The translations under genes were made by a program, and so were the position numbers. 64,000 nucleotides of DNA from Chiloscyllium plagiosum (taxonomy: Eukaryota), in contig NC_057718.1 in NCBI RefSeq assembly GCF_004010195.1, forward strand, positions 55,274,196 through 55,338,195, in the 5' to 3' direction. This document shows, in pieces, positions 14,344 to 52,159 of the stretch. Below the pieces are notes generated by a model. That model did no database searches. It saw only the letters and a program-made list of their open reading frames with translations, and had not been told where the DNA came from. Numbering within the stretch: position 1 is the first letter of the stretch; the number at the start of each line of letters is the position of its first letter.

Positions 14344-16047
14344 AAAACTTATTTTCTAAAGAGATTTCTTTTCACAGAAACACAATACTCCTAGAACTTG
14401 TGGACGGTAATACAATTTTTATTAACATAATAGGTTAAAAAAATGCTGATCGTGTGAACATAATATATTCAAATTCCAACCAAAGCAGATGAGATTTTTT
14501 TTCAGAATTCAGATTTAATTCACTTAACATCTAGGATATTACTCTTCCCAAATAATGTTCTAGGAAGGTAGTGGTCAACAATAGCCTTTGTGTGTCATAG
14601 TTGCTGCAAGTCTGTAGTTTGCTTTCTGTGATTCTTGAAAGCTGTGCTCTTCATTGAGGCCTTAAGGTTTGGCTTCAAGGAGAAAATGATCTTGTTTGAC
14701 TGCAGCAGTGAAATGTTTCAGGAATTTTTCATTCATGACCTTAAACAGACCTCAATAAAGAAAAATAAATGATTTTTTTACCATACATAAATCTTATTTT
14801 GTAATGGTGGGAACAGGCAAATTACTTTTAATGCTGCTGATGTTCTGCCAGTTATTGTGTCTCTGTTTTGTCAAATTAGCAAAGACAAAAATCTTCGGTC
14901 CTTGGGGCATTTTATTTGACAGGCCTAAAGTCCGACTGCTGTGTTCTGTATCTGAATCTGAATTTAATTTATCACCTTGACATTGGATCATTCTTTTGCA
15001 CAAATGATAGTAACACTATGTGGATTCTCTCCAAATTGCTTTCATAAATTGCAAGAATAGGGACAATTTCGGTCAGATTTCCAGAACCAGGACACCACTG
15101 AGTAATGTTTAAAAAAGCATGAAGAATTGCTGGAAATCAGAAACAAAATCAGAAATTGCTGGAAAATCTTAGCAGGCCTGACAGCAGCTGTGGAGAGAAA
15201 GCAAAGTTAACGTTTGGTTCCAGTTACCCTTCTTTAGAGCTGTTCTGATTATAAGCAGAGAACCTTCTTTAATGATATATCTTCCTGTCCCTATGCCATT
15301 ATATTTGGAGACCCCCAAGATCTTTACTTGGTTCAGTCTTATTTCTCATTAATATGCTTCCCCAACTAACTCTTTTAACCCTTGCATTGCTTATGTGGTG
15401 CCAGATTAATGAACCAACATCAAGTCCTGGATTAAACATTAGGAAGACAGGAATCATTATCTTCAGCAGTCCTGTGCAATTTCTATTTTCTGATTTCTAT
15501 CTCAGATTGAACCATAATGTTTGCAACTTTGACATCTTATTTTCCCCTGGACTAAACCTTCCAATTCCAAGGCTGCTCCATCACCAAGATCATAGATTTC
15601 CATCTCAGCAATATCACTAATTCTGCTGCTGTACTCCTAATCCATGTATTTATTACTTCTAGGCACAACCATTATATTGGATACCCTGGATTTTCTCCTG
15701 TTTTACAACCCCTTTAATCTAACCATAGATATCCTAATTTAGTACATTTAGTACTCCAATTAAGTACATCCATCTCTTGTACTTGTTAACCTGAGTTGTT
15801 TGCAAGTGAATAAATGGCTGATTTTAAAAATATTACCTTGTTTTCAAAGCTGTGCATGGTATTGCTGCTCCCATTTCTGATTTTCAGCAGCCATTCGCCT
15901 CTTTGAAAATTTTTAGTTCCTTCTTTTGACCATTTTGTACATCTCTTGTTTCTCACTTCCTTCACCCCAACAGTGGTGATGTCCTTATGTTTAGATCAGA
16001 GTGGTGCTGGAAAAGCACAGCAGGTCAGGCAGCATCCGAGGAGCAGG

Positions 16048-16086
16048 AAAATCGATGTTTCAGGCAAAAGCCCTTCATCAGGAATA
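16048..16086 (-). ncRNA. Minimal hammerhead ribozyme motif, antisense partner copy
   Basis: Reverse complement CTGATGA-A-GGGC-tttt-GCCT-GAAAC-ATC; ACGT palindrome broken by a CpG-type transition. Confidence 0.6.
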
Positions 16087-16473
16087 GAGGCAGGAAGCGT
16101 CCAGAGTGGAGAGATAAGTGGGGGGTGGGGAGAAGGTAGCAGAGAGTACAATAGGTGAATGGGAGTGGGGATGGAGGTGATAGGTCAGAGGGGAGGGTGG
16201 AGCGGATAGGTGGGAAGGGAGATTGGCAGGTAGGACATGTCATGAGGACAGTGCTCATTTCCTCTCCCCCCACCTTACCTCAGTTCCAACCTTCCAGCTC
16301 ATCACTGTTCTCATGACCTGTCCTACCTGCCAATCTCCCTTCCCACCTATCCGTTCCACCCTCCCATTGACCTATCACCTCCATCCTCACCCCCATTCAT
16401 CTATTGTACTCTTTGCTACCTTCGCCTCAGCACCACCCCCATTTATCTCTCCACTCTGGAGGCTTCCTGCCTC

Positions 16474-16512
16474 AATTCCTGATGAAGGGCTGTTGCCCGA
16501 AACGTCGATTTT
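16474..16512 (+). ncRNA. Minimal hammerhead ribozyme motif (Penelope type), intact core
   Basis: CTGATGA (16479-85), A-GGGC-tgtt-GCCC stem II, GAAAC (16499-503), GTC triplet (16504-06); palindromic ACGT in place of stem III. Confidence 0.75.
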
Positions 16513-16626
16513 CCTGCTCCTCGGATGCTGCCTGCTGTGCTTTTCCAGCACCACTCTGACCTAAACTCTGGTTTCCAGCATCTGCAGTCCTCAATTTTGC
16601 CTAGTGTTGTCTTTCTGTCAACTCTA

Positions 16627-16915
16627 GGTGGCATGGTGGCTCAATGGTGAGTGCCAGGGACCTGGATTTGATTCCAGCATCGGGTGACCGTCTGTATGGA
16701 GTTTGCACATTCTCCCCATGTCTGCATGGCTTTCCTTCAGGTAATCTGGCTTTGTCCCACAGTCCAAAGATGCGCAGGTTAGGTGGATTGGTTGTGCTAA
16801 ATTGGCCATAGTGTTTGGGAAGTGCGGGGTTACAGGATGAGGCTAAGTGGGATGCTCTTCGGAGAGTTAGTGTGGACTGAATGGGCCAAATGGCCTGCTT
16901 CCACTCTGTAGGGAT
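16627..16915 (+). mobile_element. HE1/V-SINE-like SINE
   Basis: ggtggcatggtggctca head; ggagtttgcacattctcccc body; ggcctgcttccac tail. Confidence 0.82.
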
Positions 16916-19857
16916 TCGATGAAGGTGAAGGGGCTTCTCCTTAAAGCTAGTTTCGATGCCCCCCTCCCTGCACAATTCCACCTTCTCCGTGAAGAAGCTC
17001 CTTCTGATCAAATGTCTGGTTTCATAGCTGAATATCTCCTTTTCCTCTGTGTAAATGTCAACGTAGTTATGCTCCTCTTAAGCACCTCGGAATGTTTCAC
17101 TAATAAATCTTGCATCGATAGTGTTTTCATAGTAAAGTTACTTGAATTAAGACATAGATATTGAAAATGGTATTAGTCCTAACACCATCCCAGCTCTAGT
17201 ACTGAAGACACACTCCAGAGATGGCTACACTCTTTGCTACGCTTTTCCAGTGCAGCCACAATACTGCCATTCACCTAATGATGTGGAACATTGCCTAGCT
17301 ATCTTCAGTGCACAAAAGAAAGGACAAATCCAATCTAGCTAATTACTATTCCATCAGTCTGTTCTCATTCAGCAGCAAAGTGACAGACAGAGTTATTGGC
17401 AGTACCACAAAAAGGCAATAATCTTCCCATTTATTCTGAGTTCGTCTTACCTGGACTACTCAGCTCAGACCCCTTTCTCAGTCTTATTCTGGTGAATGGT
17501 TCTGCATGACAAATCACAGTAGTGGATAAGTTGAAGAAGATAGGTTATCCCTCCTGAAATTGAAGAGTGCAAAGAAGTTTATGATGAAATTAAACTGAGT
17601 AAATATGGATAAACTAATTCATAACCTCAGGATGCAGATTTAAGCTAATTGGTTAAAAAGAAATCATCCATAACATGAGGGCAAACCATCTTGATACAGT
17701 GAGTGGTTTGGATTTGGAATGCACTGCTTGATAGGGTGGTGGAAACAGATTCAATTAGTGTCTTTCAAAGGGACAATTGGATAAAACCTTGAAGGTGGAA
17801 AAAATGTCGAGATAGTGGGGAAAAAGCCAGGATGTAAGCTCAGATAGATCACTGTTCAAAAGAATTGGCACAAACCCAGTGGAAAAAGAGCTCCACGCCT
17901 GTGTTGTAATTTTCTATGATTCTACATGAGAGAGTTTTTAATTTGAGGCATCTGTTCTAACTAGACCATTTAGAGCAGTTTGACAAAAATTGTACATTTG
18001 GTCGCTATAGTGGGGAACAAGGAATTAAACAATATGTATGGACGGATTCAAAAGCTTCTCAGATTGCATCGGAAAAGTTTCCCATCTGCAATGCACTAAT
18101 TTGTAGATTTTAATGATTGTCGTAGTAAGATACAGTGCCTCCAAGAAGAGAAGGGAAACAATGAGTATAGATACCACTCCTGATTGGCAATTGATAATTT
18201 ATCCTGGTATATTTGAATGGTCATAGGATTTGGCAAGGCAGTGGCACCTATGAGGAATGGAATTTGCAGACACACTCATTATTAAGATTATATGTTAAGT
18301 AAATGAAAGCATGCTGTAATTATAAGATGTGCATAGTTTCTGTATTCTCCTTTGAAAATCTGCCAGTATTCATACTATTGAATTAACAGCGTGCTTTCAT
18401 ACTGCATGGTGTAAAATATTAACTAGGGAGGTTTTATGTTCAGCAGTGAGGCCACTGGCTCCTGATGCATAGGTCTCAGATAGCTGTTTATAATCTCTAA
18501 ATCCCAGATTCATTAAAATTCTTAGTTATGTATATCAGTAGAACTCATCTCTAACCTTGGCTGTCATGAAAATGAATCTTTAGCCACAGAGTTATTTGAC
18601 AAGTTTTACTTTTAGTATTGCTACAAGCTAAATGAGACCCATCTTTGACAAGTCATCTCAGAAGCACTAATGCCTTTTTTCGAGTTTGTCCAAAATTTTG
18701 GAACTATATTATTCTTTTAATCTGTACATCCCATCCATAGTCAGTCTACTAGATGTAAGAAAGAAAAGTTTGTCCTTTATAACCCATTTTTCTTTGCTAA
18801 TGGACTTTTTAATTGCATGTGCCTCATTTGTTGTGCATAATTGTTCTTCAGCATGTACCTGCCTATATGTACTGCTTCAATAAATATTGACTGGGAGCCA
18901 AATCAATTTGATGCAGGAGAACAGTGGTGGGTTATGCTGAATCTGTTTTTATGTAATAATCTCAAATTAATACAAAGGAAGACAGTCGGATTGATATCTT
19001 CTTGGAAATATTTGACTGCTGTGTTGGGTGGTGACCTGAGTGCAAACTTTGCAAGTTCTGTCATTTATAATGGTTGGCAGTTGCAGTATAATCACTAATC
19101 ACTGAAATGACCCCAGCATCCTACTTGCTGTGATTCCTTTGCCTGTTCACTGTTATGAATTTTAGCCTTTTTCTGATGAATGAAATATGACGTCAACCAG
19201 AAGGAATCAAGTATGCATCTTATGTTCCAGTGACACAATTTGAGTTTGATCTCTAACTTTAACCTCAGGCCTGATTGCTGACAAACATTTCCAGAGGCAG
19301 AAGGAACCCGGATATTTATCTTTGTTTTCTTTTGACTTCCATGTCGGCCAGGAAGAGCAGGGATCCTTTGTTGGACTCCAAAAACAAATTGCATGTTTCC
19401 TCCACATTGAGTATTCCTTCCTCTACCATGATCACCATACCGTCAGTCCTTCTGCCTAGCCACATTCCTGTTCATCTAGGGCCATTCCTTAAGGACCCAA
19501 TAATGTCCAGCCTCTGAAATCCTACTCCCACTTGACCATAGGCTAATCATTCCCAGCAAGTGTGACATTTCATTTCTGCCCATTACAACCACCCAACTGT
19601 GTTTTCTTCACTCACCATCTGCTTCCAATTATGTCTGGAGTTTTCCTTTTAACATAAGAAGCGCTACAGAAAGCCAACTGGTAAGCAATTAAAATTGAGT
19701 CCTAAAATCCAGTGAAAAGTACTTTGGTTCTAGGTGTCACAGCACATCCTGTCAAAACGTTCTGTCCTTGTGTTCACACTCATCACTTATTCAGACAAGC
19801 TGCTGCTGCATCTTTGCGCAGTTGCAAAACTATCGATTATGCCTATGAAATGCTTAT

Positions 19858-22800
19858 AGAGTTATAAAGATGTATAGCATGGAAACAGATTCTTCAGTAC
19901 ATTTCGTCCATGCTAACCAGATATCCCAAATTAATTTTGTCCCATTTGCCAGCAATTTGTGCATATCCCTCTAAACCCTTCCTATCCATGTTCCCATCCA
20001 GATGCCTTTTTAAATGTTGTAACTGTATGAGTGTCCACTGCTTCCGCAGGCAGCTCATTCCATACACGTACCATCTTCTGCATGAAAATGTTGCCCCTTA
20101 GGTCCCTATTAAATATTTCTCCTTTCACCTTCAATCTGTGCCCTCTAGTTTTGGACTCCCCTACCCTGGGAAAAAAGATCTTGGCTGTTCACCCAATCCA
20201 TGACCCCTATGATTTTATAATCCTCTGTAAGGTCATCCCTCAGCCTGTAATGGTCCAGGGAAAATAGCCCCAGTCTATTCAGCCTCTCCCCATAGCTCAA
20301 ACATCCTTTATAAATCTTTTCTGAATCTTTTCAACTTTAACAACATCTTTCCTATAGCAGAGAGACCAGAATTGAATGCAGTATTACAAAAGTGTCTTAA
20401 TCAATCTCATGTCCGCAATATGACATCCAAATTCCTATACTCAGTGCACTGACCAATGAAGGCAAGCGTGCCAAATGCCGCCTTTACCACCACATCTACC
20501 TGCAACTCTACTTTTGAAGGAACTGCGAACCTATACTCTTTGTTCAGCAGCACTCCCCAGAACCTTACCATTAAGTTTGGAAGTCCTGCCCTGATTTGCC
20601 CTGAACACATCACAGTTATCGAAACACATCACTGAACACATTACATTTATCCCTCTGTCACTCCACAGCACATTGGCCCATTTGATCAAGGTCCCGTTGT
20701 ACTCCAAGATGACCTTCTTCATTGTGCACTACACCACCAATTTTGGTGTCTTCTGCAAAGTTACGAACCATAACTCCTGTATTCACATCAAAATCATTTA
20801 TATAAATGACAAAAATCAGTGAACAAGCATCGATCCTTGCGGCACACCACTGGTCACAGGCCTCCAGTCTGAAATGCAACCCTCCACCAACATCCTTTGT
20901 CTCCTGTCTTCAAACCAATTTTGTATCCAAACAGCTAGCTCTCCAGATATTCCAAGTGATCTAGCCTTGCTAACAGGTCTATCAAACAGAACCTTGTCAA
21001 ATGGCTTGCCGAAGTCCATCTAGACAATGTCCACCCCTTTGTCTTTGTTCATCTTCTTTATCACTTAGAGTCCTAGAGATGTACAGAATAGAAAAAGACC
21101 CTTCAGTCCAACCAGATGTCCTAAATTAATCTAGTCCCATTTAGCTTGGCCCAAATCCCTCTTAAATCCTTCCTATACGTATACCCATCCAGATGCCTAT
21201 TAAATATTGTAAGTGTACCAGCATTCACCACTTCCTCTGGCAGCTCATTCCATATACACACCACCCTCTGCTTGAAAACGTTGGCCCTTAGGTCTCTTTT
21301 CAATCTTTGCCCCTCACTCTAAACCTATTCCCTTTAGTTCTAGACTCCCCAAGTGCGAGTAAAAGGCCTTCTCTATTTACCCTATCCATGCCCCTCATGA
21401 TTTTATAAACCTCTATAAGGTCACCCCTCAGCCTCCAGCGCTCCTGGGGAAACAGCCCCAGCCTTATTCAGCCTCTCCCTATAGCTCAAATCCTTCAATC
21501 GTGGCAACATCCTTGTAAATCTTTTTTGAACCATTTCAAGTTTCACAACATCTTTCCTATAGAAAGGAGACTAGAACTGCACACAATATTCCAAAAAGGG
21601 CCTAACCAATGTCCTGTACAGCATGACCTCCCAACTCCTATATTGAGTGCTCTGACCAATAAAGGAAAGCATGCCAAGCATCTTCTTCACTATCCAGAGA
21701 AAGTATATTCCTGTTAGGGTGAAATGAAAGACTGATAGGAACAGGGAATGCTGGATGACTAAAGAAATTGAGGGTTTAGTTAAGAAAAAGAAGGAAGCAT
21801 AAGGTTTCGACAGGATAGATCGAGTGAATCCTTAGAGTATAAATAAAGTAGGAGTATGCTTAAGAGGGAAGTCAGGAGGGCAAAAATGGGACATGAGATA
21901 GCTTTGGCAAATAGAATTAAGGAGAATCCAAAGAGTTTTTACAAATACATAAAGGACAAAAGGGTAACTAGGGAGAGAAAAGGGCCCCTCAAAGATCAGC
22001 AAGGCAGCCTTTGATTGGAGCCACAGAAAATGGGGGAGATACTAAATGAGTATTTTTCATCAGTATTTACTGTGGAAAAGGATATGAAAGATATAGACTG
22101 TTGGGAAATACATGGTGACATCTTGCAAAATGTCCATATTACAGAGGAGGAAGTGCTGGATGCCTTGAAACGCATAAAAGTGGATAAATCCCCAGGACCT
22201 GATCAGGTGTACCCTTGACCTCTGTGGGAAACTAGAGAAGTGATTGGTGGGCCTCTTGCTGAGGTATTTGTATCATCGATAGTCACAGGTGAGGTGCCGA
22301 AAGACTGGAGGTTGGCTAACGTGGTGCCACTGTTTAAGAAGGGTGGTAAGGACAGCCAGGGAACTATAGACCAGTGAGCCTGACGTCGGTGGTGGGCAAG
22401 TTGTTGGAGGTATCCTGAAGGACAGGATGTACATGTATTTAGAAAGGCAAAGACTGATTAGGGATAGTCAACATGGCTTTGTGCGTGGGAAATCATGTCT
22501 CACAAACTTGATTGAGTTTTGAAGAAGTAACAAAGAGGATTGATGAGGGCAGAGCGGTAGGTGTGATCTATATGGACTTCAGTAAGGCGTTCGACAAGGT
22601 TCCCCATGGGAGACTGATTAGCAAGGTTAGATTTCACGGAATACAGGGAGAACTAGCCATTTGGATACAGAACTGGCTCAAAGGTAGAAGACAGAGGGTG
22701 GTGGTGGAGGGTTGTTTTCCATACTGGAGGCCTGTCACCAATGGAGTGCCACAAGGATCGGTGCTGGGTCCTCTACTTTTTGTCATTTACATAAATGACT

Positions 22801-23740
22801 TGGATGCGAGCATAAGAGGTACAGTTAGTAAGTTTGCAGATGACACCAAAATTGGAGGTGTAGTGGACAACGAAGAGGGTTATCTCGGATTACATCAGGA
22901 TCTGGACCAGATGAGCCAATGGGCTGAGGAGTGGCAGATGGAGTTTAATTCAGATAAATGCGAGGTGCTGCATTTTGGGAAAGCAAATCTTAGCACGACT
23001 TATATACTTAATGTACAGGACATTGGTTAGGCCACTGTTGGAATATTCGTGCAAATCTGGTCTTCTTCCTATCAGAAAGATGTTGTGAAACTTGAAAGGG
23101 TTCAGAAAAGATTGGGTATATGAATAGGAAGGGTTTGGAGGGATTTGGCCGGGTTTCACAGGTGGGACTAGATTGGGTTGGGAAATCTGGTCGGCTGAGA
23201 TGGTTTGGACCGAAGAGTCTGTTTCCATGCTGTACATCTCTACGACTCTATGACTCTATCTATCTTCAACTCCACTTTCAAGGAACTATGAACCTGCACT
23301 CCAAGGTCTCTTTGTTCAGCAACACTCACCAGGACCTTACTATTAAGGGTATAAGTCCTGCCCAAAATGCCTTTCCAAAATGCAGCACCTTACATTTATC
23401 GAAATTAAACTCCATCTGCCAGTCCTCGGTCCATTGGCCTATCTGATCAAGATCCCATTTAACTCTGAGGCAACCTTCTTCGCTATCCACTACACCTCCA
23501 ACTTTGATGTCATCCTCAAACTCACTAACTATACCTCCTATGTTCACATCCACATTATTTATATAAATGACGAAAAGCAGTGGACCCAGCACCAATGCTT
23601 GTGGCACACCACTGGTCACAGGCCTCCAGTCTGGAAAGCAACTCTCCACCATCACCCTCTGTATTCTACATTTGAGCCAGTTCTGTATCCTTTCTATATA
23701 TGAGATAAGCTCAGAGTCTCTATGACTCTAAGTCTATGAC
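19858..23740. mobile_element. Nested CR1 cluster: minus copy about 19858-21065; minus copy 21067-21695 resuming at about 23258-23690; plus copy 21696-23257 inserted between
   Basis: RT motifs YMDFSKAFDKVPH, GVPQGSVLGP, FADDTK on both strands; (CTATGACT)n tails at about 19858, 21067, 23240 and 23720. Confidence 0.88.
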
Positions 23741-25020: not shown

Positions 25021-25199
25021 AGACTTAGACACCATCGATGTTGGTCTTCCCTTTAAATAATTCCTATATTGAATGAATCATTTTTTCAATTGTCTTCCAG
25101 TGGAAAGGTCTGTGGAGAATTGGGCTCCTAATCAATGTTGCTACTACAATGTAATGATATGCCACTCTTGCCTCATGTTCACTCCAGTCACCCCTTCAT

Positions 25200-25525: not shown

Positions 25526-25589
25526 CTAATCATCTGTGAAGCAGGTTGGGACAAGCTTGGCTCATGAGAGGCACTATACAGATGCAAAG

Positions 25590-26983
25590 CCCCATGGGAG
25601 ACTGGTTAGCAAAGTTAGATCTCACGGAATATAGGGAGAACTAGCCATTTGGATACAGAATTGGCTCAAAGGTAGAAGACAGAGAATGGTGGTGGAGGGT
25701 TGTTTTTCAGACTGGAGGTCTGTGACCAGTGGAGTGCCACAAGCATTGGTACTGGGTCCTCTACTTTTTGTAATTTACATAAATGATTTGGATGTGAGCA
25801 TAAGAGGTACAGTTAGTAAGTTTGCAGATGACACCAAAATTGGAGGTGTAGTGGACAGCGAAGAGGGTTACTTCAGATTACAACAGGATCTTGACCAGAT
25901 GGACCAATGGGCTGAGAAGTAGCAGATGAAGTTTAATTCAGATAAATGCGAGGTGCTGCATTTTGGGAAAGCAAATCTTAGCACGACTTATTCACTTAAT
26001 GGTAAGGTCCTAGGGAGTATTGCTGAACAAAGAGACCTTTGAGTGCAAGTTCATAACTCCTTGAAAGTGGAGTCCCAGTTAGATAGGATAGTGAAGAAGG
26101 CGTTTGGTATGCTTTCCTTTATTGGTCAGAGTATTGAGTATAGGAGTTGGGAGGTCATGTTGCGGCTGTACAGGACATTGGTTAGGCCACTGTTGGAATA
26201 TTGCGTGCAGTTCTGGCCTCCTTCCTATTGGAAAGATGTTGTGAAACTTGAAAGAGTTCATAAAAGATTTACAAGGATGTCACCAGTGTTGGAGGATTTG
26301 AGCTATAGGGAGATGCTGAACAGGCTGGGGTTGTTTTCCCTGGAGCGTCGGAGGCTAAGGGGTGACCTTATAGAGGTTTACAAAATTATGAGGAGCATGG
26401 ATAGGATAAATAGACAAAGTCTTTTCCCTGGGGTGGGGAAGTCCAGAACCAGAGGGCATAGGTTTAGGGTGAAAGGGGAAAGATATAAAAGAGACCTAAG
26501 GGGCAACTTTTTCACACAGAGAGTGGTACGTGTATGGAATGAGCTGCCAGAGGAGGCTGGTACAATTGCAACATTTAAGAGGCATTTGGATGGGTATATG
26601 AATAGGAAGGGTTTGGAGGGATTTGGCCGGGTTTCACAGGTGGGACTAGATTGGGTTGGGAAATCTGGTCGGCTTAGATGGTTTGGACCGAAGAGTCTGT
26701 TTCCATGCTGTACATCTCTACGACTCTATGACTCTATCTATCTTCAACTCCACTTTCAAGGAACTACGTGTATGGAATGAACTGCCAGAGGAAGTGGTTG
26801 AGACTGGTACAATTGCAGCATTTAAGAGGCATTTGGATGGGTATGTGAATAGGAAGGGTTTGGAGGGTTTGGGCCGAGTGCTGGCAGGTGGGACTAGATT
26901 AGGTTGGGATATCCGGTTGGCATGGATGGGTTGGACCGAAGTGTCTGTTTCCATGCTGTACATCTCTATGATTCTATGACTCT
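25590..26983 (+). mobile_element. Young 5'-truncated CR1 LINE with a duplicated 3' end
   Basis: GVPQALVLGP, FADDTKIGG, LYRTLVRPLLEYC, FFTQRVVRVWNELP; two successive tails at about 26717-26737 and 26965-26983. Confidence 0.92.
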
Positions 26984-26984
26984 A

Positions 26985-28620
26985 AATGGCTAGTTCTACC
27001 TGTTTTTATTTGTGATCTAACCTTGCTAACCAGTCTACGATGAGGAACCTTGTCAAACACCTTACTGAGGTCCATATAGATCACATCCACCGCGCTGCCC
27101 TCATCAATCCTCTTTGTTACTTCTTCAAAAAATGTAATCAAGTCAATGTGACACAATTTCCCACACCCAAAGCCATGTAGACTATTTCTAATCAGTCCTT
27201 ACCTTTCCAAATACATGTAAATCCTGTCCCTCAGAATCCACATCCACTCTTAACAACTTACTCACCATTGATGTTAGGCTCACTGGTCTATTATCCCTGG
27301 CTTTTCCTTACCATCTTCCTTGAATGAAGGCACCACATCAGCCAATCTTCAGTCTCCTGGCACTTCACCCGTGGCTATCGATGATACAGGTACCTTACCA
27401 AGGGGCCCAGCGATCACTTCCCTACATTTCCACAAAGGTGATGGGTATACTTGATCAGGTCCCAGGCATGATCCACCTTTATGCATTTTAAGATGTCCAG
27501 CTCCACACCTCTGTAATATAGAAACTTTTCAAGAACTCAATATTTATTTCTCCAAGTTCTCTAGCTCCCATATCCTTCTCCAAAGTAAATTCTGACAGAA
27601 AATACTCATTTAGTATCTCCTGCGGTTGAATACATGGATGGCCTTGTTGATCTTCAAGGGGCCTTATTTTCACCTGAGTTACTCTTTTCTCCTAATGTAT
27701 TTGTAGAATTTATTTGGATTCTCCAAAGCTATCTCATGTCCCCTTTTTGCCTTCCTGATTACCCTCTGAAGTGTACCCCTACTGCGTTTAGGGATTTACT
27801 CGATCACTACAGTCTATATGTCCTCCTTTTTCTTGATCAGAGCCTCAATTTCTGTGGTCGTCCAGCATTCCTGCACCTATCAGCCTTCTCCTCACACGAA
27901 CAAGAATATGTTGTCTCTGAACTCTGCTTATCTCAATTTTAAAAACCTCCCACTTTCCAGCTGTCCCTTTCCTGTGAATAGCCTCCCTCAATCAACTTTT
28001 GAAAGTTCTTGCCTAATACCATCAAAATTGGCTTTCCTCCAATTTAGAACTTTAACTTTTTGATCATGCCTATCCTTTTCCATAACTATTTTAAACCTAA
28101 CAGAATTTTGATCACTGGCCACAGAGTGTGTCCCCACTGATACCTCAGTCACTTGCCCTCCCTTATTTCCCAAGAGAAGGTCAAGTTTTGCTCCTTCTTG
28201 AGTGGGTACATTCACATTCAAAATGTGTGGTGCTGGAAAAGCACAGCTGGTCAGGCAGAATCTGAGGAGCAGCAGTGTTGACTTTTCAAGCATAATCTCA
28301 TCATCATTCCTGATGAAAAGCTTATGCTTGAAACGTCGACTCTCCTGCTCCTCGGATGCAGGCTGATTGTCTGTGCTTTTCCATCACCACACTTTTTGAC
28401 TCTGATCTTCAGCATCTGCAATCCTCACTTTCTCTTGATACATTCATGTACTGAATAAGGAAATTTTCTTGTACATATTTAAAACTTCCACTCCATCCAA
28501 GCCTTTAAGACTATGGTAGTCCCAGTCTACGTTTAGAAAGTTAAAATCCCTTCTATTACAACTGTATGTTTTCACAGATAACTGAGATCTCCATGCAAAT
28601 GTGCTACTCAATTTTTGTTT
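26985..28620 (-). mobile_element. CR1 LINE internal fragment (endonuclease to RT N-terminus), interrupted at 28215-28438
   Basis: VDVIYMDLSKVFDKVPH; PTQEGAKLDLLLGN; SDQNSVRF. Confidence 0.85.
28215..28438. mobile_element. Mini Penelope-derived fold-back with hammerhead motif (CTGATGA 28310-16, GAAAC 28330-34, GTC 28335-37 on +)
   Basis: About 85-bp inverted arms; stem II AAGC-ttat-GCTT; TACATTCA repeated at 28207-14 and 28439-46. Confidence 0.82.
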
Positions 28621-31470: not shown

Positions 31471-31808
31471 TGGGCGGCACGGTGGCACAGTGGTTAGCAC
31501 TGCTGCCTCGCAGCGCCAGAGACCCGGGTTCAATTCCCGACTCAGGCGACTGACTGTGTGGAGTTTGCACGTTCTCCCCGTGTCTGCGTGGGTTTCCTCC
31601 GGGGGCTCCGGTTTCCTCCCACAGTCCAAAGATGTGCAAGTCAGGTGAATTGGCCATGCTAAATTGCCCGTAGTGTTAGGTAAAGGGGTAAATGTAGGGG
31701 TAGGGGTAGGGGTATGGGTGGGTTACGCTTCGGCGGGTCGGTTTGGACTTGTTGGGCCGAAGGGCCTGTTTCCACACTGAAATTAATCTAATCTAATCTA
31801 ATCTAATC
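31471..31808 (+). mobile_element. HE1/V-SINE-like SINE, young full-length
   Basis: CpG-rich intact A/B boxes; (TAATC)n tail; near-identical to 714-1025. Confidence 0.92.
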
Positions 31809-32040
31809 AAATTTCTAGTATCCGCAGTTCTTTGTTTTTTGTGTAGCATTGACGATTTGTTTGCTTAAATGTAAAATTTTCCATAATACTATCAGAAGAA
31901 AACCAGTGGTGTTCTCCCCAATCAGAGAGTAGCTGGTCATTTTGCTGTATTTTACACTTTCTAAAATAAAAGACAATTAATTGGTTTTGGAGCACTTTGA
32001 AATGTCCTGAGGGTGTAGAAGAATTATTTCTTTATTGTAT

Positions 32041-32382
32041 ATCATAGAAGCCCTGCAGTGTGGAAGCAGACCATTCAGTCCACACTGATGGTCTTGAGAG
32101 GGTCTCACCAGACCCATCCTTCCCTATCCCTGTAACCCTGCATTTCCCATGGCTAATCCACCTAGCCTGCACATCCCTAGATACTATGGGCAATTTAGCA
32201 TGGCTGATTCACCTAACCTGCACATCTCTGAACTGAGAGAGGAAACAGGAGCACCTGGAGGAAACCCATGCAGATGTCAGAGAATGTATGGAGTTTGCAC
32301 AGACAGTTGCCCGAGGCTGGAATCGGATCCAGGTCCCTGGTGCTATGAGGCAACAGTGCTAACCACTGAGCTACCATGCCAC
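32041..32382 (-). mobile_element. HE1/V-SINE-like SINE
   Basis: Reverse-complement head ggtggcatggtagctcagtggttagcactg. Confidence 0.82.
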
Positions 32383-33379
32383 CTATGCATCAAGTATTTA
32401 TTCAGGCTTAACAATTTTTTTTAATGGTGCAAGGCCTGTGAAATATTTTTATTTGCCCACATTTGTTCAGATTAATTATTCCTACATCATATGTGATTAA
32501 TTCTGTCTGTCACTTCCAAAATGAGGACAGGTTTTTGTGAGAGTTTGTACTCTTTCCGGGGTGAGGAATCTCAATGTTGAATCCTTTTCCACTGCTTCTA
32601 TATTTGATTTAAAATAAAACTTTTACTGCGGTATCTCGCCAATGTGTTGCAGGTCCAATCTTAACTCTATTGTGCCAAGGCCACGTCTGACATTTTCTAC
32701 TGTTCATCATTCATCCTATGATTTCTCAAGCTGTTTTTATGTTGTGCAAAATTCATTCTAAAGAACAGTCTTCCTGACAACTAGTTTCTCAGAAGGACCC
32801 TAAATTCAACTTCAGTCTTTCAGTGCGAATCCCACACTTCAGGAAATAGTGGGCAGGATGTTGATTTCATGCAATATGGAAACAATTTCTGAGTCACCTG
32901 TGCAATTAGCTTTTGTTTAGAAATATTCTTGTTTTGCCCATAACACAAGGAGTTAGATGGAAGCTGGCCAAAACTAATTTTCCTTGGAACATTTATGCCA
33001 TAGATATTCAAGATGCCCATCCTGTAGTTTGGGCATGCCTTTCAATCTGAAGACTGAGCTGAAATCCAACTGTACCCATCTAGTTTCTTGAAGTAAAATA
33101 AAATGCTTCTCAAATATTTGCAGACGGTGTAAGACAATAACTTAAACTTCAGAACATGGCAGCACTTGGTGAAAGTGCTGAAGGTGACAAGAGTGCACTG
33201 GTTAAGTCCCAAACGTATGAATTAAAGCAGAAGAAGATGGTTTGGCTCCTATGTCCTGCTCTGCCTGTCTATAAGATCATGATTTATCTGTGGCTCAATA
33301 TCACATTACCCACCTACTCCTAAACTCCCTTGTTATTCAAGAATCTAATTTTGCCTTAAAAGAATACAATGACCCCCAC

Positions 33380-41393: not shown

Positions 41394-44300
41394 TGCAAGC
41401 CAGGCAGCATCAGGAGGTGGAGGTTGACATTCCAGGTGTTACCCTTCTTCAGGATTGAGGGAGCTGCAGATAAAGGGGGAGGTGGGAGCAGAGTGGTGAA
41501 GTGGGGTTAGGTGAAGACCGGTGGAGGGTACGACCTAGTTAGTCATTGGGAGGAATGGATCCGGTGGAATGGGGAAGGAGGTTATTTGAAATTGGAAAAC
41601 TCAATGTTGAGTCCTCCAGGGTGTAGGGTGCCCAGGCGAAAGATATGGTGTTGATCCTCCAATAGGCGCTGTGGTTTGGTTTGGCAATGGAGGAGGTCAA
41701 GGATCATCATGGCGGAAAGGGAGTGGTTGGGAGAATTGAAATGGGCGCTGACTGGGAGATCCAATCAGCCCCTGCAGACCTGACTGCAACGTTCTGTGAG
41801 CTGTTCCCTAAGTTTATGTTCGGTCTCCCTGATGTAGAGAAGACCACATCGGGAGCACCTGATGCAATAAACTAGGTTGGAAGAGAGGCAGGTGAACTTC
41901 TGTCTCACGTGGAAGGACTATTTGGGGCACTGGATGGAGGTGAGGGGGGTGGTGTACTGGCAAGTTTTGCATTTTTTCTAGTTACAGGGGAAGGTACCTG
42001 GGTATTTAGTGGCGGGGTGAGGACAAGAGGGGCTCTGCCCTTATTGTGTTAGTGGAGCGATGGAATGAGGAATGGAGGTGGTGCGACAGAGAGATGTCTA
42101 GATGATGGAGGGATGAATAGCGCATTGCTTAAAATAGGTGGACATCTGGGATACTTGCGAGTGGAGTGTCTCCTCATCCAAGCAGAGGCGGAGGAATTGG
42201 GAGAATGGGATGGAGTTTTTGCAGGATAGTGGATGGGAGGAGGTGTAGTCCGGGTAGTTATGGGAGTCTGTACATTTGTAGTAGACACCCATCTGCAAAC
42301 TATTGCCAGAGATGGAAAGGGAAGGGCGAGAAAGGGGAGGGAGGTGTCCGAGATGGACCAAGTGAATTTGAGGATGGAGTGGAAGTTGTGGGTGCAGTCA
42401 ATGAACTGCTCCAATTCAACCTGGGTGCAAGACACTGCACTGATGCAGTCAGTGATGTAACGGTGGAAGACTTTGGGTACAGTGCCTGTGCAGGTGCTGA
42501 AGAGGGACTGTTCGATGTGGCCGGCAAAGAGGCAGCGGAGCTGGGGCCCATCTGGGTACCCATGGCCACCCACTAGATTTGGAGGAAATGGGAGGAATTG
42601 AAGAAAATGCTATTGAGGGTGAGGACCAGATCAGCTTGGTGGAGGGGGACTGGATGGGTCTGTTGGAGAGGAAGAAGTTGAGGGCCTAGAGACCATCCTT
42701 GTGGGGTATGGACGTGTATAAGGACTGCACGGCCATAGTGAAAAGAAAGCCTGCAGGCCGGGGAAGTGGAAGTTGTTGAAGCTTTGGAGGTGTGGACATA
42801 AGTGGGAAGTGCCTGAACTAGGGGGGAGAGGATGGAGTCTAGGTAAGACGAGATGAGTTTGGTGGGGTAAGAGCATGCCGAGACAATGGGTTGTACATGA
42901 TAGTTGGGCTTGTAGGTCTTGGGGAGTAGGTAGAACCCGGTAGTGCAGGGCTGGGAGACTGAGTTTGGAGGCAGTACAGGTAAAGGGGAGATCACTAGAG
43001 GAAACAAAGGCACTGACTGTGTCGCTCATAGTCCCCCTGCCCCGCATGCCCGGTTCTACCTGCTCTCCAAAATCCATAAGCCCAACTACCATGCCCAACC
43101 CATTGTCTTGGCATGCTCCTGCCCCACCAAACTCATCTTGTCCTACCTTGACTGCTTCCTCTCCCCCCCAGTTCAGGCACTTCCCCACCTACGTCCACGC
43201 CCTCCATAGTTTCAACAACTTTCACTTCCCCAGCCCACAGCCTTTCTCTTCACTATGGCTGTGCTATCCTTATACCTGTCCGTACCCCACAAAGATGGCT
43301 TCCAGGCCCTCATCTTCTTCCTCTGGAACAGAGACCCATCCAGTTCCCCCTCCACCAAGAACCTCCTCTGCCTCACTGAACTGGTTGTCACCCTCAATAG
43401 CTTTTTCTTCAACTCCTCCCATTTCCTCCAAATCCAGTGGGTGGCCATTGGTACCCAGATGGGCCCAGCTCTACCTACCTTTTTGTCGGCCACATCAAAC
43501 AGTTTATCTTCACCTACACAGGCATTCTACCTCAACTTTTCCGCCGTTACGTCGATGACTGCATCAGTGCAGCATCCTGCACCCAGGCTGGACTGGAGCA
43601 GTTCATCGACTGCACCCACAACTTCTTCCCCTCCCTCAAATTCACTTGGTCCATCTCAGACACCTCCCTCCCCTTTCTCAACCTACCATTTCCATCTCCG
43701 GTGACAGTTTGCAGATGGAAGTCTACTGCAAACCTACAGACTCCCATAACTACCTGGACTACACCTCCTCCCACCTAGTATCCTGCAAAAACTTCATCTC
43801 ATTCTCCCAGTTCCTCTGCCGCATCTGCTCAGATGAGGAGACTCTCCACTTGCGAGTATCCCAGATGTCCACCTATTTTGAGCGACATGCTTTTCTGTCA
43901 TCCAGACATCCCACTGCCACACCACCTCCATTCCCTGTTCCACCACACTAAACTCCCCCCACCCCCCCCCCCCCCCAAACACAATAAGGACTGAATCCCC
44001 CCTTGTGCTCACCTACCACCCCACCAGTCTCCGCATCCAATGCATCATCCTCAAACAGTTCCGGCAACTCCAACTGGACCCCACCACCAAGAATATTTTC
44101 CCCTCCCCACCCCTCTCAGCCTCCGCAAGGATCATTCCCTCCAACAGTCCTTAGTTCGTGCCACCCCTGCCACCAAATGCTCAGGTACATTCCCCTGTAG
44201 CCAGAAAAAGTGCAAAACCTGCCAATATATCAACCCTCTCACCTCCATTCAGTGCCCTAAACAGTCCTTCTCGGTGAGACAGCGGTTCACCTCCCTCTCT

Positions 44301-44974
44301 TCCCATTTTAATTCTGCTAACCACTCCCTTTCCAACATGACCATACTTGATCTCCTCCATTGCTAACACAAACCAACAGGAGCAAAACCTTATCTTCCGT
44401 CTAGGCACCCTACAGCCTGGAGGACTCAACACTGGGTTCTCCAATATCAAATAATCTCCTTCCCCATCCCCCAGCTCCCTTCCCAGCCCCACCAGTTCAC
44501 TCTTATTGCTGCCTGCCACCAACCGGATCCATTCCTCCCATTAGGAGAAAGTGAGGACTGCAGATGCTGGAGATCAGTGTCATGAGTGTGGCGCTGGAAA
44601 AGCAGTTGCAGATCAGATAGCATCCAAGGAACAAGATAATCGACACTTCAGGCAAGAGTTTCTGATGAACGGCTCTTTCCCAAAACATCCATTCTCCTGT
44701 TCCTTGGATGCTGCCTGACCTGCTGTGCTTTTCCAGCACTACACTCACGACCCTCACCTCTCCCATTGACCAACCTGGTCGTACTCTCCACCTGTCTTCA
44801 CCTATCCCCATTTCACCACCCTGCCCCCATCTCCCCCTTCATTTGCAGCTTCCCCTACATCCAGGAGGGTTACGGGAGGACTTCTACACCTCCTGATGCT
44901 GTCTGGCTTGCTGTGTTCTTCTAGTGTTCTGCCTATCGACTATAGATCCAGCATCTGCAGGTTTTTTTTTGTCT
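41394..44974. mobile_element. Penelope-like element as a large inverted duplication (minus arm about 41394-43010, plus arm about 43025-44974); RT and GIY-YIG remnants
   Basis: AMGTQMGP and FRRYVDDCI RT motifs; FYLLSKIHKP; CKTCQYI and HFNSPNHSL...IFRLGTLHPGGLNIEF endonuclease C-terminus; 17-bp flanking repeat ctatacaggcaga(t/c)cat at 41377-93 and 44975-91. Confidence 0.9.
44543..44759. mobile_element. Mini Penelope-derived fold-back nested in the large Penelope element
   Basis: Inverted arms (gtgtggcgctggaaaagca / tgcttttccagcactacac); degenerate ctgatgaacggctctttcccaaaacatc core; CTCCCATT repeated at 44535-42 and 44760-67. Confidence 0.78.
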
Positions 44975-46424
44975 CTATACAGGCAGACCATACCATATAA
45001 AGTGCATCAGGGGAGCAGAACAAAGTGCAGAATGCAGTGTTAAAGCTGCAGAAAATGTTCAAAGAGATCAGAATTAACATTTGAGAAGTCTGTTCAAAAA
45101 TCTAATAACAGTGGGGAAGAGGCTGTTCTTCATTATATTCGTACATCTATTCAAATCTTTATACCTTCTGCCCAACAGAAGAGGGTGGAAGAGAATGTAA
45201 CCAGGGTGGAAGGGGCCTTTGATTATGTTGGTTACTTTCCCAAGGAGCGGGAGGTATGGATAAGGTGATAATATTACTGCATTTGGTTTAAAACATGTTA
45301 ACTGTTATACAGTTTTCAAGGATATACAATATGGTACACCATTAACCTAGGGAAATACTGGTACAAGTTGCAATATGGTATTTACATTACAAGTTTAATA
45401 AAATGTTTCTGTGGCAAGTGACAGTGTTCCACTGCATTATAAAATCTAGATAGGTCACTAGTTTACACCCAGAACTTTACCAAGACCTATCTGATTTAAT
45501 TTAAGGGCCTGATTTAGTTTTAATTCATTCATGGGACATAGGCATCGCTGGCCACCCTTGCTGCCCTTGAGAAGATGGTGATGAACTGCCTTATTGAGTC
45601 AGTGCATTCCATGTGCTAAAGGTAGACCCACAATTGATATTAATGGCAAATTCCAGGGTTTTGATCCATCAACAAGTGAAGGAATGGCAATGTTTTCAAA
45701 TCGGGATGTTGAGTAACTAGGAGGGAACTTGCAGGTAGTGGTGTTCTCATGTCTATGCTGCCTTGTCCTTCTCAATGGAAGTCGTCATGGATTTGGATGG
45801 TGTTGTATAAGGATCTTTGGTGAATTTCTGGAGTAGATAGATTTATTTTGTAATCGAGGTAAGATGGGTGGGTTGAAAAATAAGACAGGGAAACAGTGAC
45901 TTTGTAAAGCGAGGTAGAGATTATTTAGAAGGGAAAAATGAAGGTGGTTTTAATTTGTTTTGGAGTTAAATGGATCTTGAAGAGCATTAAGTATGTGTCG
46001 TTCTCACATTGTTATTAATGACAATAGTGGTTGGAGTGCTAGCCACTTGATCAAAAATCATGATTTACAACAGCAGCCTGTGAGAAATACTTTGTTCTGA
46101 CTGGGTACTGTAATACTTGTACAGATGCCAGAAAAATAGGGAGTAAATAGTATTGTAAGACACTACAAAAAGAGACAGATTAGACTAGGAAAATTGTGTG
46201 ACTTTTAATTTAAATAAATCTAAGATACATTTTTGGAGAAGCAACAAGTAGAATACACATTAAATTTCAAGAAGAGTGGTGAAACAGATTATTTGCAACC
46301 TGACATTGAAAGGGGATGCTTGATAGAAAATGGTTTCTTTAATAAAAGTGGTCCCTTTTGAAGAAGACACATGGTTTGATCTTATATAAAGCAACTGCTT
46401 CAATTTCCAAAAGATTTTTTAACA

Positions 46425-47140: not shown

Positions 47141-48249
47141 CTTATTTTACCCAAAGTTTCACTGGTTTGCCTGTTTTGCATTTTTAAAAATAAATTGGAA
47201 ATGGTGATGATTAGCACAACTATAAAATTTGTGAATATTTTATAACAAAGACTCTGGGAAATAAAATAAATTGTAGACTATGATTCGTAGTTAATTTGAT
47301 GCTTGTTTGATGTCTCTCTTTGTTCCTTTTAAAGTATCAAGAGTAAAATTGTGTAAGCAGATTCAAGATAATGGAAAGGAGTCTTGAGAATAATGTTGAC
47401 AACTTGATAATGGTTCAATTTCTTGCTGAACAGCTGCCACCAAAACAAACCTGTTTCTAGGATGCAGTGCCCAAACTGAATAGTACTTTAGTAAAGTTTT
47501 TGGAGACCTCATCAGAGAACTGTATCATTGCAATTCCTATAATGGGAACTATGTTGACTTCAAAGAAGATACGATGACGGGCATAGATTCTGACTGTATC
47601 ATCCACACTTCCTGTCTAGTATATTGAAATCCTGCTATGATTTTGGATTCAAGTGATTTAAAAAATTGTGGGGATCTTGAAGTTATTGCTCTTGAAGTTA
47701 TTGCTGGAATCACTACTATACAGGTGGTCAGTTTGTTTGTTGTTGTGATGTAGCCAAAAAGAACTAGACATCGACTAAATAGAGAAAGCAGGGAATCTAG
47801 TTTCATATGAGGAAGACTGATATTGCTCAGTGATTCATTTGTGGAACTATACTGCATTGCTGCTGGTGAAGACTAACACCACCACAGCCCTCCAGGAATA
47901 TGAAACTTCATTTCTGAAATATTACAGAATCCGAGCAGAAAAGAAATATTTTGCACAAAAAGTAACAAGTTATGAATCCTTATCCATTTGTCTTCAAGGG
48001 GTAAGACAGAAAGTATTGAGAGGGGTTTATGAAATATTGCCATTTTTAGAAGGTGGTGATGAAAAAAAGGTGTGTTACAGAATGAGAGCAGTAAGACATT
48101 GATCTTGTGTGTCATACTTGTTTTTCTTATCCTGAGTACATAACCCTTTAAGACAGATTTAAAGATTCTGAGATGTTGATTTTTGAAACTAGGCTGAAGT
48201 ATTGATAAAGTGAATTTTAAAAGTCTAGGAAGATAGACATTATAAATAG

Positions 48250-48474
48250 GTTCTGGATGTAGGTTTGCTCGCTGAGCTGGAAGGTTCGTTTTCAAACGTT
48301 TTGTTACCATACTAGGTAACATCAGTAAGCCTCCAGAAGAAGCTTCATACAGAAGCTCACTGATGATGTTACCTAGCATGGTGACAAAATGTCTGAAAAC
48401 TAACCTTCCAGCTCAGTGAGCAAATCTACATCCAGAACTTCAACCTGAGCTACAAATTTTCTCAAAACCCGCTA
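48250..48474. mobile_element. Mini fold-back from a second Penelope-like family with degenerate hammerhead (CTGATGA 48360-66)
   Basis: 48250-48330 is the reverse complement of about 48356-48438; stem II GTTACC-tagcat-GGTGAC; flanking attataaa(t/c)aggt at 48239-51 and 48475-87. Confidence 0.75.
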
Positions 48475-49269
48475 ATTATAAACAGGTACATAAAATGTAA
48501 AATGTAAAATCAATAAGATAATGCTAAATCTGTACAAATCATTGTCTTAAATCACTATTATAGTTAAGATACAGAAGAAATTCACTAAGATTACACCAGG
48601 TCTCAGTTGCTTCATTTGAGGGAAAAAAAAATGGGTTATTTCCATCAGCACAATAAAGATTAGAGCAGATCTGATTGAGAGGTAAATATTTGTTTCCATT
48701 TTTGTAGTTGCTATCCAGAGAGTATAAATTTACAAAAAGGATAAAAGGAGAAATCCAAAGAATATTTAGTCAGAATTGGTAGGATGTGAAATGGCCGGGC
48801 ACAAATAACGGTGGAACCAGAATTCATAATCACTTTTCAAAAAACAGCAGAGAAGCACATAAAAAAAGTAAAATGACTGGGGGCAGGATGGAATGGGAAT
48901 AGCTACATAGTTCTTTTATAATCAGTGCAGATGCAATGGGTTAAATGGCACATTCTGTGTGTGATACTCTTTATTCTAATGGCCTTTTCTATCTTCTTCC
49001 AGATCTCCTCTGTCTCATGCACATTCATTCTCTCACTTTCACTTCCACTTGTATTCTCCCTGCTGCCATGAAGTGACTGCAAGAAAGAAACTGTGTATTT
49101 TACATATGCATAACCTCCACAAAAGGCTGTGCAATCAGTTAAGTACTTTTAGACAGTACCTATTTATCATATGCATACATACTCTGATGTGAGGTTCCCA
49201 TCTACTTCAAAAAGAGCACTGTCATCTCAGTGCCAAAGAGAAATCAGGCATTGTTCCATAATGACTACC

Positions 49270-49497
49270 TTCTTCTGGATCAGTGGTGCTGGAAGAGCAC
49301 AGCAATTCAGGCAGCATCCGACGAGCAGCAAAATCGACGTTTCGGGCAAAAGCCCTTAATCAGGAATAAAGCTGATGAAGGGCTTTTGCCCGAAACGTCG
49401 ATTTTGCTGCTCATCGGATGCTGCCTGAATTGCTGTGCTCTTCCAGCACCAGTGATCCAGAATCTGGTTTCCAGCATCTGCAGTCATTGTTTTTACT
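49270..49497. mobile_element. Young mini Penelope-derived fold-back (91-bp arms, 8-nt loop) with hammerhead pair
   Basis: 49273-49363 is the reverse complement of 49372-49462 (3 mismatches); exact 12-bp TSD ATAATGACTACC at 49258-69 and 49498-509. Confidence 0.92.
49368..49405 (+). ncRNA. Minimal hammerhead ribozyme motif, intact core (stem I 5' strand truncated)
   Basis: CTGATGA (49372-78), A-GGGC-tttt-GCCC, GAAAC (49392-96), GTC (49397-99). Confidence 0.68.
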
Positions 49498-52159
49498 ATA
49501 ATGACTACCGCCCAGTGAATCTGACATCCATGGTTATGAAATACTTTAAGAGGTTAGTAATGGCACACGTCAATTCCAGTCTCCCAGATTGCCATGGTTC
49601 ATTACAATTCAACTGCTATATCCATGGCAGACACCATTTCCCAGGACCTACACTCATCCCTGGTACATCTGGAACAAGAACCCCACCTACGTCAGAGTCC
49701 CTATTTATTGATTTTAGCTTTGCCTTCAACACTATAATTCCAACAAACACATCTCCAAACTCCCCTCTCAACAACTGGATCCTCGACTTCCTGACCTGCA
49801 GACCACAATCAGTAAGGATAGGTGACAACACCTCCTCCATAATAATTGTCAACACCAGTGCCCCAGAAGGCTGCGTACTCAGCACATTACTTCACTCCTT
49901 TTATACTCATGACTGTGTGGCCAAATTCAGCTCTAACTGATGTACAAATTTGCGAATACCACCACCATAGTGGGTTGGATCTCAAACAACAAATAAGACA
50001 GGCAGTTTAATGACATGGTATAAAGACAACAATCTCTCTCTCAATGTCAGCAAAACAAAACAGCTGGTCATTGACTTTAGGAAGCAGAATAGAGGACACA
50101 CCCCTGTCCATCAATGGTGCTGACGTGGAGATGGTTGAGAGCTTCAAGTTCCTAGGAGTAAATCTCACCAACCCACTGTCCTGACCCATCCATGTTGTTG
50201 CGGCAGTCAAGAAAGCACACCAATACCTCTACTTCATCAGAAGGCTAAGGATATTTGGCATGTTCACAATGACTCATGAATTTTTATAGATGCACCACAG
50301 AAAACGTCCTATCCAAATGCAGTATAGCCTTGTATGGCAGCTGCTGTGCCAGAGACCGCAAGAAATTACGGAGAGCTGTGAACGCAGCCCAATCTGACAC
50401 AAAAGCAGCCTTCCTTCCATTGAATCTGTCTATACTTTCCACTGCCTCAGGAAGGCAACCAACATAATCAAAGACCCCTTCCACCCCAATCTCTTCCAAC
50501 CTTTTCCATTGAGTATAAGATAGAAAAATTTGAAAATACAAACCAACAGATCCAAGAACAGCTTCTTTCCTGCTGTTATCATACTTATGAACGGACCTCT
50601 CCTATATTAGAGTTGATCGTGCTGTGCACCTTATCTGTAGTAACACAATATTCTGAATTCTGATCTATTACTCTGACATACCTATGTAAGGTACAATTTG
50701 TTTTGAAAATATGCAAAACAATATTTTTCACTGTATCTCAGTATAATAAATCAAGTAAAAGAAAAAGGACCAAACCTAAGAATCAGTTCGAACATTGCAA
50801 AGTCCCACAAATAGCAAATAAGATCAATGGCAAATAAGACTTGACCTTGTTAAGTCCTGTCAAAAGCAATATTTCTGACAAGCAGTACTGTCTTCATACT
50901 ACATTAAAATGTTAATCTTAATAGTGTGCTCCAGTTCTGGAGTAGATCGCGACACACAAATGGCTATTGCCATTATGTCAGACTAGCAGGATATTTGAAA
51001 GTCTAGGATGAGACTGTGCTATGTTGAGTTAGATAAAATAATGAATGGAAGTTATAACTGAAAATGAACCAAAACCGCATGGAAAATGCAGCATTAACAA
51101 AACCTTAAAGACTTAAACCTAGAATAGGAGGGGGAAGGAAATCAATTTATTTCATGCATATGCTGTGGGATATTTTAAAAAAGGATGATTTTAAAAAGCT
51201 ATTGTTAAGTTTCTAAATAACGAATGAAAACTCATCTCATCAGCTTTGTTTTTTGTATCAATGTTAGTAACCTGAAGATTTTGAAATGGGATTTGAGCAG
51301 AGAATCAATCTTGGGAATTGCTGTTCTTCCACATTAATTTATTGGCATTTGTATGGTTTATGTTTATGTTCATAGATCACAAATATGTCAGTCAAGACTT
51401 AGGTACATTTAAGTCCTCACTTTCTCCTTAAATACATCAAAGGCAGTTGAACTTAGTGATTTGGAACCAGAACACTTAAATCTCAGAATCTTTACTCATA
51501 GTAGTTTTAATTTGAGTCACCTAGTCTTTTCCCAGTCTCACTAATCGATCATTCAAATAAATCTTCTTCTCACTGAACTGGATTACCTACTTTCTTAATT
51601 CTCTGCTTCTTGCCAATTCACTGCAAATAATCTGATCATGTCTATATTATTGATTTCTTTAAAAATTACATAAATATTCCCTTCTTAGCCTTTTACTCAC
51701 TACTGAATCCAAAACATTGCATGATTTCTGTCTTCATAAGCTCAATCAACTGGCATGGAAGAGAGTGATTAGAATATGGAGTTTGCTGTAACAAGAATTC
51801 GACAAACCGTGTAAATGCATTTAAGGGGAAGTTAGATATACACATGAGGAAGAAAGGAATGGAAGATTACGCTAGGTAAGTGGAATGATGTAAGATGGAA
51901 GCGGCTCAAGTGAAGGACAAATATGAAATCAGACTAAGTGAATTAAATTGCTTATTTCTATTGTGCACATTCAGCTTCTAGTTGCCAGTAGAATTATTCC
52001 AAATGAATGACAAACATGTGAACAGTGTCAGCTTGAGCTCCACTTTCTTGAGTCATTGGTTTTGGTTTCAATTCCCACTCCTGGACTTGAGCATAAAAAT
52101 GAAATCTGATACTCAAGTGTAGTAATACTATGGATGTAGTGCTCCATCATTCGTGGTGT

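Follow-up and report, generated by a model that had tools for sequence, protein, structure and literature searches.

Endonuclease-bearing (EN+) Penelope-like retroelements are known to leave mirror-image insertions in animal genomes; what we say of the papers cited here and below refers to those parts of them that were available to us. Insertions of the Pen2a_Av type have been described with an inverted pseudo-long terminal repeat (pLTR), a one-sided tail of 30-40 bp and a duplication (PMC3846280; PMC8557442), and in Schistosoma the minimal hammerhead motifs come as pairs on opposite strands, 100-700 bp apart (PMC4209133). A single minimal hammerhead alone was found not to cleave, both in that study and in work on the green anole Poseidon element PAc (PMC11167929), which showed in vitro that both strands are cut and extended and that two reverse transcription (RT) starts flank the tail. 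The origin of the mirror insertions and the cutting of RNA in vivo by such weak hammerheads are open questions in these papers (PMC8557442; PMC4209133; PMC11167929).

Here we describe five short fold-back elements, E1 to E5, in a 64,000-nt stretch (the window) of the Chiloscyllium plagiosum genome (assembly GCF_004010195.1, contig NC_057718.1, forward-strand positions 55,274,196 to 55,338,195). One of them is E5 (49258-49509, + strand), a young copy whose arms (49273-49363 and 49372-49462) are 97% identical; it ends in a 35-nt tail (49463-49497), is flanked by a 12-bp duplication, and folds into one long hairpin (-191 kcal/mol, z = -27) that none of 200 shuffled sequences matched in stability. 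We consider it quite probable that these hairpins are extremely 5'-truncated Neptune- or Poseidon-type insertions, each with its own junctions, made by two-ended priming and head-to-head joining. With less assurance, we also lean toward the broader view that the stumps are a fossil record at base resolution, in which one enzyme complex primes both ends from two fixed sites on the RNA, sometimes on two RNAs, and in which part of the template had been cut by the hammerhead in the germ line, in Neptune and Poseidon alike.

Judged from sequence, the arms are terminal repeats of EN+ Penelope-like elements. A protein search with the window's reverse transcriptase (also RT) fragment gave 20,121 candidates in the genome, and 19 long loci, picked for their long open frames, were used to trace the parents. 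In several of these (e.g., L087, L096, L097 and L098) the arm lies downstream of the RT in sense orientation; Pfam RVT_1 matches five of seven frames, all below the cut-off (E 3.5e-6 to 1.5e-4). L087 and L098 carry, just 5' of the arm, endonuclease-like frames of the GIY-YIG type (motif IYCIRC..C..LYIGETGR, read by eye). In the E5 subfamily the tail continues into the start of the open reading frame (ORF) at +165, counting from the C of CUGAUGA as 0, and this tail-to-ORF junction has 500 exact matches. The arm lies 3' of the RT and endonuclease and the tail leads into the ORF; the arms are therefore pLTRs. A CX4CxxC motif precedes the endonuclease frame in L087 and L098, and the linker motif is also present in the long element of the window. 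Such a CX2-5CxxC linker before the endonuclease has been assigned to Neptune/Nematis (PMC8557442), and by this motif E1, E2, E3 and E5 are placed in that clade, so that "Neptune-type" below covers Neptune or Nematis. E4 is assigned to the Penelope/Poseidon clade; the endonuclease frame of L096, known from one decayed copy only, has no linker motif. As a side observation, frequent template switching is suggested by partial tandems (L292:1000-1760, L146, L147, L223, L268, L270, L289 and L291) whose ORF-start region switches to the terminal repeat at varying points. At about position 1500 of L327 a Neptune-type stump leads straight into an arm of Poseidon type; here one insertion is probably nested in the other.

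Elements of this kind are extremely abundant. An even sample of 80 spaced 10-kb stretches (776,474 non-N bases of the 3.56-Gb genome) holds 173 arms, among them 35 adjacent divergent pairs, and solo stumps outnumber pairs; extrapolation gives roughly 160,000 hairpins genome-wide. The 40-nt tail motif of the E5 subfamily alone has 15,192 exact matches, the first 90 of which, all on C1 and unselected for the centre, served as an unbiased subfamily set. An adjacent short inverted arm was present at 27 of these 90 loci and all 27 junction pairs are distinct, as are all 28 junctions that could be scored among the 35 pairs of the even sample. A pattern in which both arms reach -1 occurs at 1,264 loci; among the 50 matches listed, 46 centres differ by eye, and the recurrent ones are present in 3, 2 and 2 copies, the two commonest being perfect palindromes. 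The perfect centre of E5's top genome matches occurs at 58 loci, is absent from all 27 unbiased subfamily fold-backs, and, in the 15 loci inspected, goes with six or more different variant backgrounds; it has therefore formed repeatedly. Those top matches had suggested a family of fixed size, but this was a query bias that the unbiased sampling ruled out. The fold-backs are thus largely one-off insertions and not units that spread as such. A first, sequence-only reading of the window had allowed for repeated products of extreme Penelope truncation, and these junctions bear that alternative out; the outcome it had named as refuting units that transpose as such, a unique breakpoint at every locus, largely holds across the samples, the few recurrent palindromic centres aside. 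E1 to E5 are then examples of a very abundant, known kind of insertion, ordinary retrotransposon debris, and individual copies were likely dead on arrival.

The abundance of the stumps makes it possible to count ends base by base, and so to put both Penelope-like questions to the test. The inner ends of the copies crowd between -10 and +10, at the 5' edge of the hammerhead. A second peak, smaller but sharp, coincides with the predicted cut, which in Neptune-type copies lies between +27 and +28. At the 90 subfamily loci (16 censored) there are 29 ends per 1273 nt at -10 to +19 vs. 3 per 685 nt at -40 to -11 (p = 0.001). The even sample gives 80 ends per 2163 nt vs. 5 per 558 nt beyond the cliff (p = 1.6e-4), a count that took 128 of 149 arms and left out 21 with identity below 78%, probably with a bias to long copies. 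Short ends show no difference between paired and solo arms (56 vs. 53, Kolmogorov-Smirnov p = 0.91), and therefore the ends were fixed at insertion and not by processing of the palindrome. For the cliff near -10 the best reading is the 5' end of the RNA. Against it stands that aligned contigs and single-cell reads revealed no usable transcription start (nor an empty site); a cap G was seen at two of three ends near -8. Read depth falls upstream of the core, a drop confounded by subfamily divergence.

The second, smaller peak was measured for Neptune-type copies with exact-match patterns in which the copy is preceded by two non-consensus bases, at +24, +26, +28 and +30. For one variant there are 88 matches at +28 vs. 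22 at +24, 13 at +26 and 29 at +30, and after correction for partner composition the numbers become 210-356 vs. 44-125, a 1.7- to 7-fold excess (p = 2e-10 on conservative weights). All 30 of the +28 loci inspected are separate events with varied partners (two are internal to an element); about a third of 41 control matches inspected by eye are point or slippage variants or duplicates, not junctions. A looser +28 pattern with 539 matches was rejected, as an inherited 17-nt internal duplication is present in 15 of the 17 C-preceded loci that were inspected, and the Neptune peak is based only on the 88 purine-preceded matches. For Poseidon, a pattern spanning the cut has 432 matches; among the 100 listed, 50 were dropped (deletions inside the element, overlaps that were ambiguous or ends lying farther downstream), and the other 50, by eye, include 19 that start at the cut, 7 at -1 and a mean of 2.7 at nine other positions. 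The coincidence of the peak with the cut site in both clades is likely an indirect sign, read from genomic junctions, that the ribozyme cleaves in vivo. We also note that the inherited 17-nt internal duplication, as in L295-L312, has its left edge at the predicted cut site and could have arisen when copying jumped from a cleaved RNA, or else by slippage in a GAT repeat, and that a small tandem array at G000:C16:30315871-30316020 has five matches about 30 nt apart, each of which starts at the predicted cut.

Several points count against cleavage. The Poseidon peak is weaker in 30 loci scored by script (5 at the cut, 3 at -1 and 3 at +2); one G is shared with the partner at many +28 junctions, so that +28 and +29 are inseparable; and in the accessible part of the PAc study no RNA-seq reads end at the cut and cleavage was unneeded in vitro (PMC11167929). 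The strongest competing explanation, which concerns this second peak alone, is that reverse transcriptase pauses at the hammerhead fold, or that microhomology favours joining there, on RNA that was never cut. The one-base G overlap and the missing read ends speak for it, as does the weak activity of minimal hammerheads in vitro (PMC4209133). Still, two families whose surrounding sequence is unrelated both have their peak at the predicted bond, and the Neptune junctions at +28 proved to be separate events with varied partners, while the controls are inflated by matches that are not junctions. We therefore regard pausing or microhomology as an unlikely source of the peak, one that nevertheless deserves to be taken seriously, and prefer RNA already cut by its hammerhead.

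As to the origin of the mirror form, among the 35 sampled pairs, 31 have one tail, 3 none and 1 two. The tail-bearing arm has its outer end at +125, and the tail-less arm ends at +87 to +93 in 22 of 27 subfamily fold-backs; duplications of 13-20 bp flank 22 of these 27 vs. 14 of 37 short solos. The farther 5' reach belongs to the tail-less arm in 12 of 27 and to the tail arm in 10 of 27. We propose that both ends of one staggered DNA cut would prime reverse transcription on element RNA, that the two outer ends would mark two fixed internal RT start sites, and that the two short copies would then be joined head to head; the -10 cliff would be the 5' end of that RNA, and the second peak would come from templates the hammerhead had already cut. 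Such two-ended priming fits the anole enzyme, for which both strands are cut and extended and two starts bound the tail (PMC11167929). Both arms would usually derive from a single source variant, but sometimes from two. In 97 fold-backs free of redundancy, whose selection is in part biased by previous queries, diagnostic subfamily alleles differ between arms in 13 of 290 comparisons vs. a 1.7% background (p = 0.0014). This points to two RNA sources for about one fold-back in eight, with gene conversion as an alternative.

The other way to make a palindrome, proposed for such insertions in PMC3846280, is that one complementary DNA (cDNA) strand folds back, primes itself and is copied, later deletions at the centre varying the junction. 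A single folded-back cDNA would equally predict the low discordance between arms (13% vs. 42% for random pairing) and the 12 rare changes common to both, and these findings count against two-ended priming to that extent. So do the inversions that extend 30 and 61 nt into flanking DNA at L032:1389-1652 and L063:514-660, with two tails or none; these are possible snap-back products, and snap-back would then occur at least sometimes. Short inverted pieces confined to the centre lie beside some solo stumps, 4 of the 35 pairs have no tail or two, and arms could come to look unequal if palindrome centres were deleted asymmetrically once inserted. As a general mechanism, though, self-priming is improbable. 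A tail-less arm that is the longer one in 12 of 27 cannot have been copied by folding back of the tail arm, and the tail-less strand, carrying no tail, cannot have supplied one by folding back itself. Nor would self-priming account for the fixed outer end of the tail-less arm, for chimeric arms such as those of L015 and L022, or for solo stumps that end at the same places.

Few arms in the window keep a complete ribozyme motif. The E5 right arm has a minimal type I hammerhead motif at 49372-49404 (+ strand), whose core fits the published minimal form (CUGAUGA, an extra base, stem II, GAAA-C/G-UC and a short stem I); by established hammerhead numbering the predicted cut falls after the GUC at 49397-49399. 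The call rests on a pattern match and this fit; Rfam cmscan returned no hammerhead family, and its matches to microRNA models were of a generic hairpin kind and stayed under the gathering scores. The sequence-only reading had an intact or decayed hammerhead motif in most arms, arranged as head-to-head pairs; the motif is indeed present, but read by eye the full CUGAUGA-stem II-GAAAC-GUC series is kept in only 3 of the 10 window arms (the right arms of E1, E2 and E5), and none of the five elements has two intact cores. Both cores are complete in 3 of 27 fold-backs of E5's subfamily and in 7 of 28 evenly sampled pairs, and the core bases of inserted copies decay like background (5/346 vs. 34/1986). 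The idea that the ribozyme is locked in a long duplex fared better: in the fold computation stem II has a pairing probability of 0.00 in the whole of E5 and about 0.995 in one arm, and as modelled the lock is physically right. It is likely a by-product.

From the lock the same reading had gone on to a self-silenced class of non-autonomous units resembling miniature inverted-repeat transposable elements (MITEs) or retrozymes, transcribed and moving whole, and this is very improbable: loss of stem II in the duplex, the recurrence of a few perfectly palindromic centres and the full-length, same-sized hairpins with duplications that head E5's match list speak for it, but that list is biased by its query, the perfect centre is rare beside the exact subfamily tails, most fold-backs lack two full cores, cores decay no more slowly than background, single minimal hammerheads do not cleave in the publications, and no tandem repeats of the unit were seen in the window or the samples. 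A MITE family consists of numerous copies that share a single fixed structure and are bounded on either side by terminal inverted repeats; here junctions are distinct, one end has an unpaired tail and duplications are of 13-20 bp. Retrozymes are tandem head-to-tail hammerhead units, and the window and samples have single divergent arms.

The five elements were described as sharing one architecture, and all five do have inverted, divergent arms; corrections concern E3, which has its tail on the left, E1, whose spacer is arm sequence, and E4, which is of an unrelated family. E1 (15989-16604, + strand) is Neptune-type, with a tail-less arm at 15989-16253 (-) and a tail-bearing arm at about 16254-16604 (+) that has its core at 16479; the paired parts (15989-16253 and 16303-16566) match at 242 of 258 positions, and the 49-nt "spacer" between them is itself part of the right arm, where it continues the terminal repeat. 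E2 (28207-28446, + strand) is an older Neptune-type copy with arms at 28212-28306 and 28311-28405 (80% identity), a right-arm core at 28310 and an 8-bp duplication (28207-28214 and 28439-28446). E3 (44535-44767, - strand), a decayed Neptune-type copy, has arms at about 44570-44658 and 44659-44760 (about 80% identity) and an 8-bp duplication (44535-44542 and 44760-44767). E4 (48239-48487, + strand) is Poseidon-type, with arms at 48250-48324 and 48364-48438 (91% identity) and a decayed core at 48360; it has no match to the other four and matches the 3' end of L096, and its duplication is 8 bp if exact or 13 bp with one mismatch (48239-48251 and 48475-48487). The reported flanking duplications of 8-13 bp in four elements are thus confirmed, and none was found in the flanks of E1.

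E3 is nested in the 3' part of a long, decayed Neptune-type fold-back (41395-44976), with a left arm at 41395-42975 (-) and a right arm from 43026 to about 44976 (+). It has the same layout as the small ones with arms of >1.5 kb, both with RT and endonuclease-region remnants, so that arm sizes in the window form a continuum (about 100 nt, 290 nt and >1.5 kb). A direct, tail-less Neptune-type 3' end at 63704-64000 (+) continues about 30 nt beyond the window edge, and 1.2 kb past that edge another such fold-back, the sixth, is flanked by an 8-bp duplication (L101:2196-2408). Other repeats also form inverted pairs (283-916, 22663-23690, 26058-26762 and 31473-32383); the host frames of the second and third read like reverse transcriptase of what we take to be long interspersed nuclear elements. 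A palindrome at 9111-9199 (43-nt arms, short direct repeat at right) has no match to the Penelope references; in appearance it is an inversion made by local template switching. The search for host exons came back empty, and the location inside a gene that the sequence-only reading had assumed is at most a possibility. A 125-aa frame at 57038-57415 (-) has a match to Pecanex_C below the cut-off (E 5.8e-4) but no homologues and is probably not an exon; 148 further frames, out of 165 non-repeat open frames, gave no Pfam match above the cut-off and one below it.

Compared with what has been described, the fold-backs come close to Pen2a_Av-type insertions, with which they share a truncated copy head to head with a direct one, a tail at a single end, a duplication and strong 5' truncation (PMC3846280; PMC8557442). 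They differ in being mostly stubs of 100-250 nt at very high copy number, which makes end statistics possible, and the young copies here have 13-20 bp duplications, with data that speak for priming from both ends rather than for the self-priming that had been proposed. Non-LTR retrozymes (bioRxiv 10.64898/2026.07.22.740005) are likewise non-coding and pLTR-related and have a type I hammerhead, but in the text available they are head-to-tail tandem repeats, whereas each fold-back is a lone head-to-head stump that has a tail and junctions of its own. The main RT start of PAc lies 111-118 nt inside an ORF whose first codons are at stem II; it would be at about +118 to +125 in our numbering and so matches the tail end here. 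The ORF starts at +165 in the E5 subfamily, however, four of the five elements are Neptune-type, and the available text on PAc offers no account of mirror insertions (PMC11167929). A literature search, incomplete in coverage and excluding supplements, returned no publication on truncation ends at the hammerhead cut or on two-ended priming for Penelope-like elements. The value of the stumps lies in their junction statistics, in two clades, and the predictions are specific: reverse transcription should start at about +90 and at about +125, the RNA should have its 5' end near -10, and templates that were cleaved should begin at the cut bond. The metazoan pLTR hammerheads have the same core, the same extra base before stem II and the same palindromic 15.2-16.2 pair as those described here, and where the accessible part of that study states that there is no evidence for cleavage in vivo (PMC4209133), the junction peak in the C. 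plagiosum genome offers an indirect genomic record of it.

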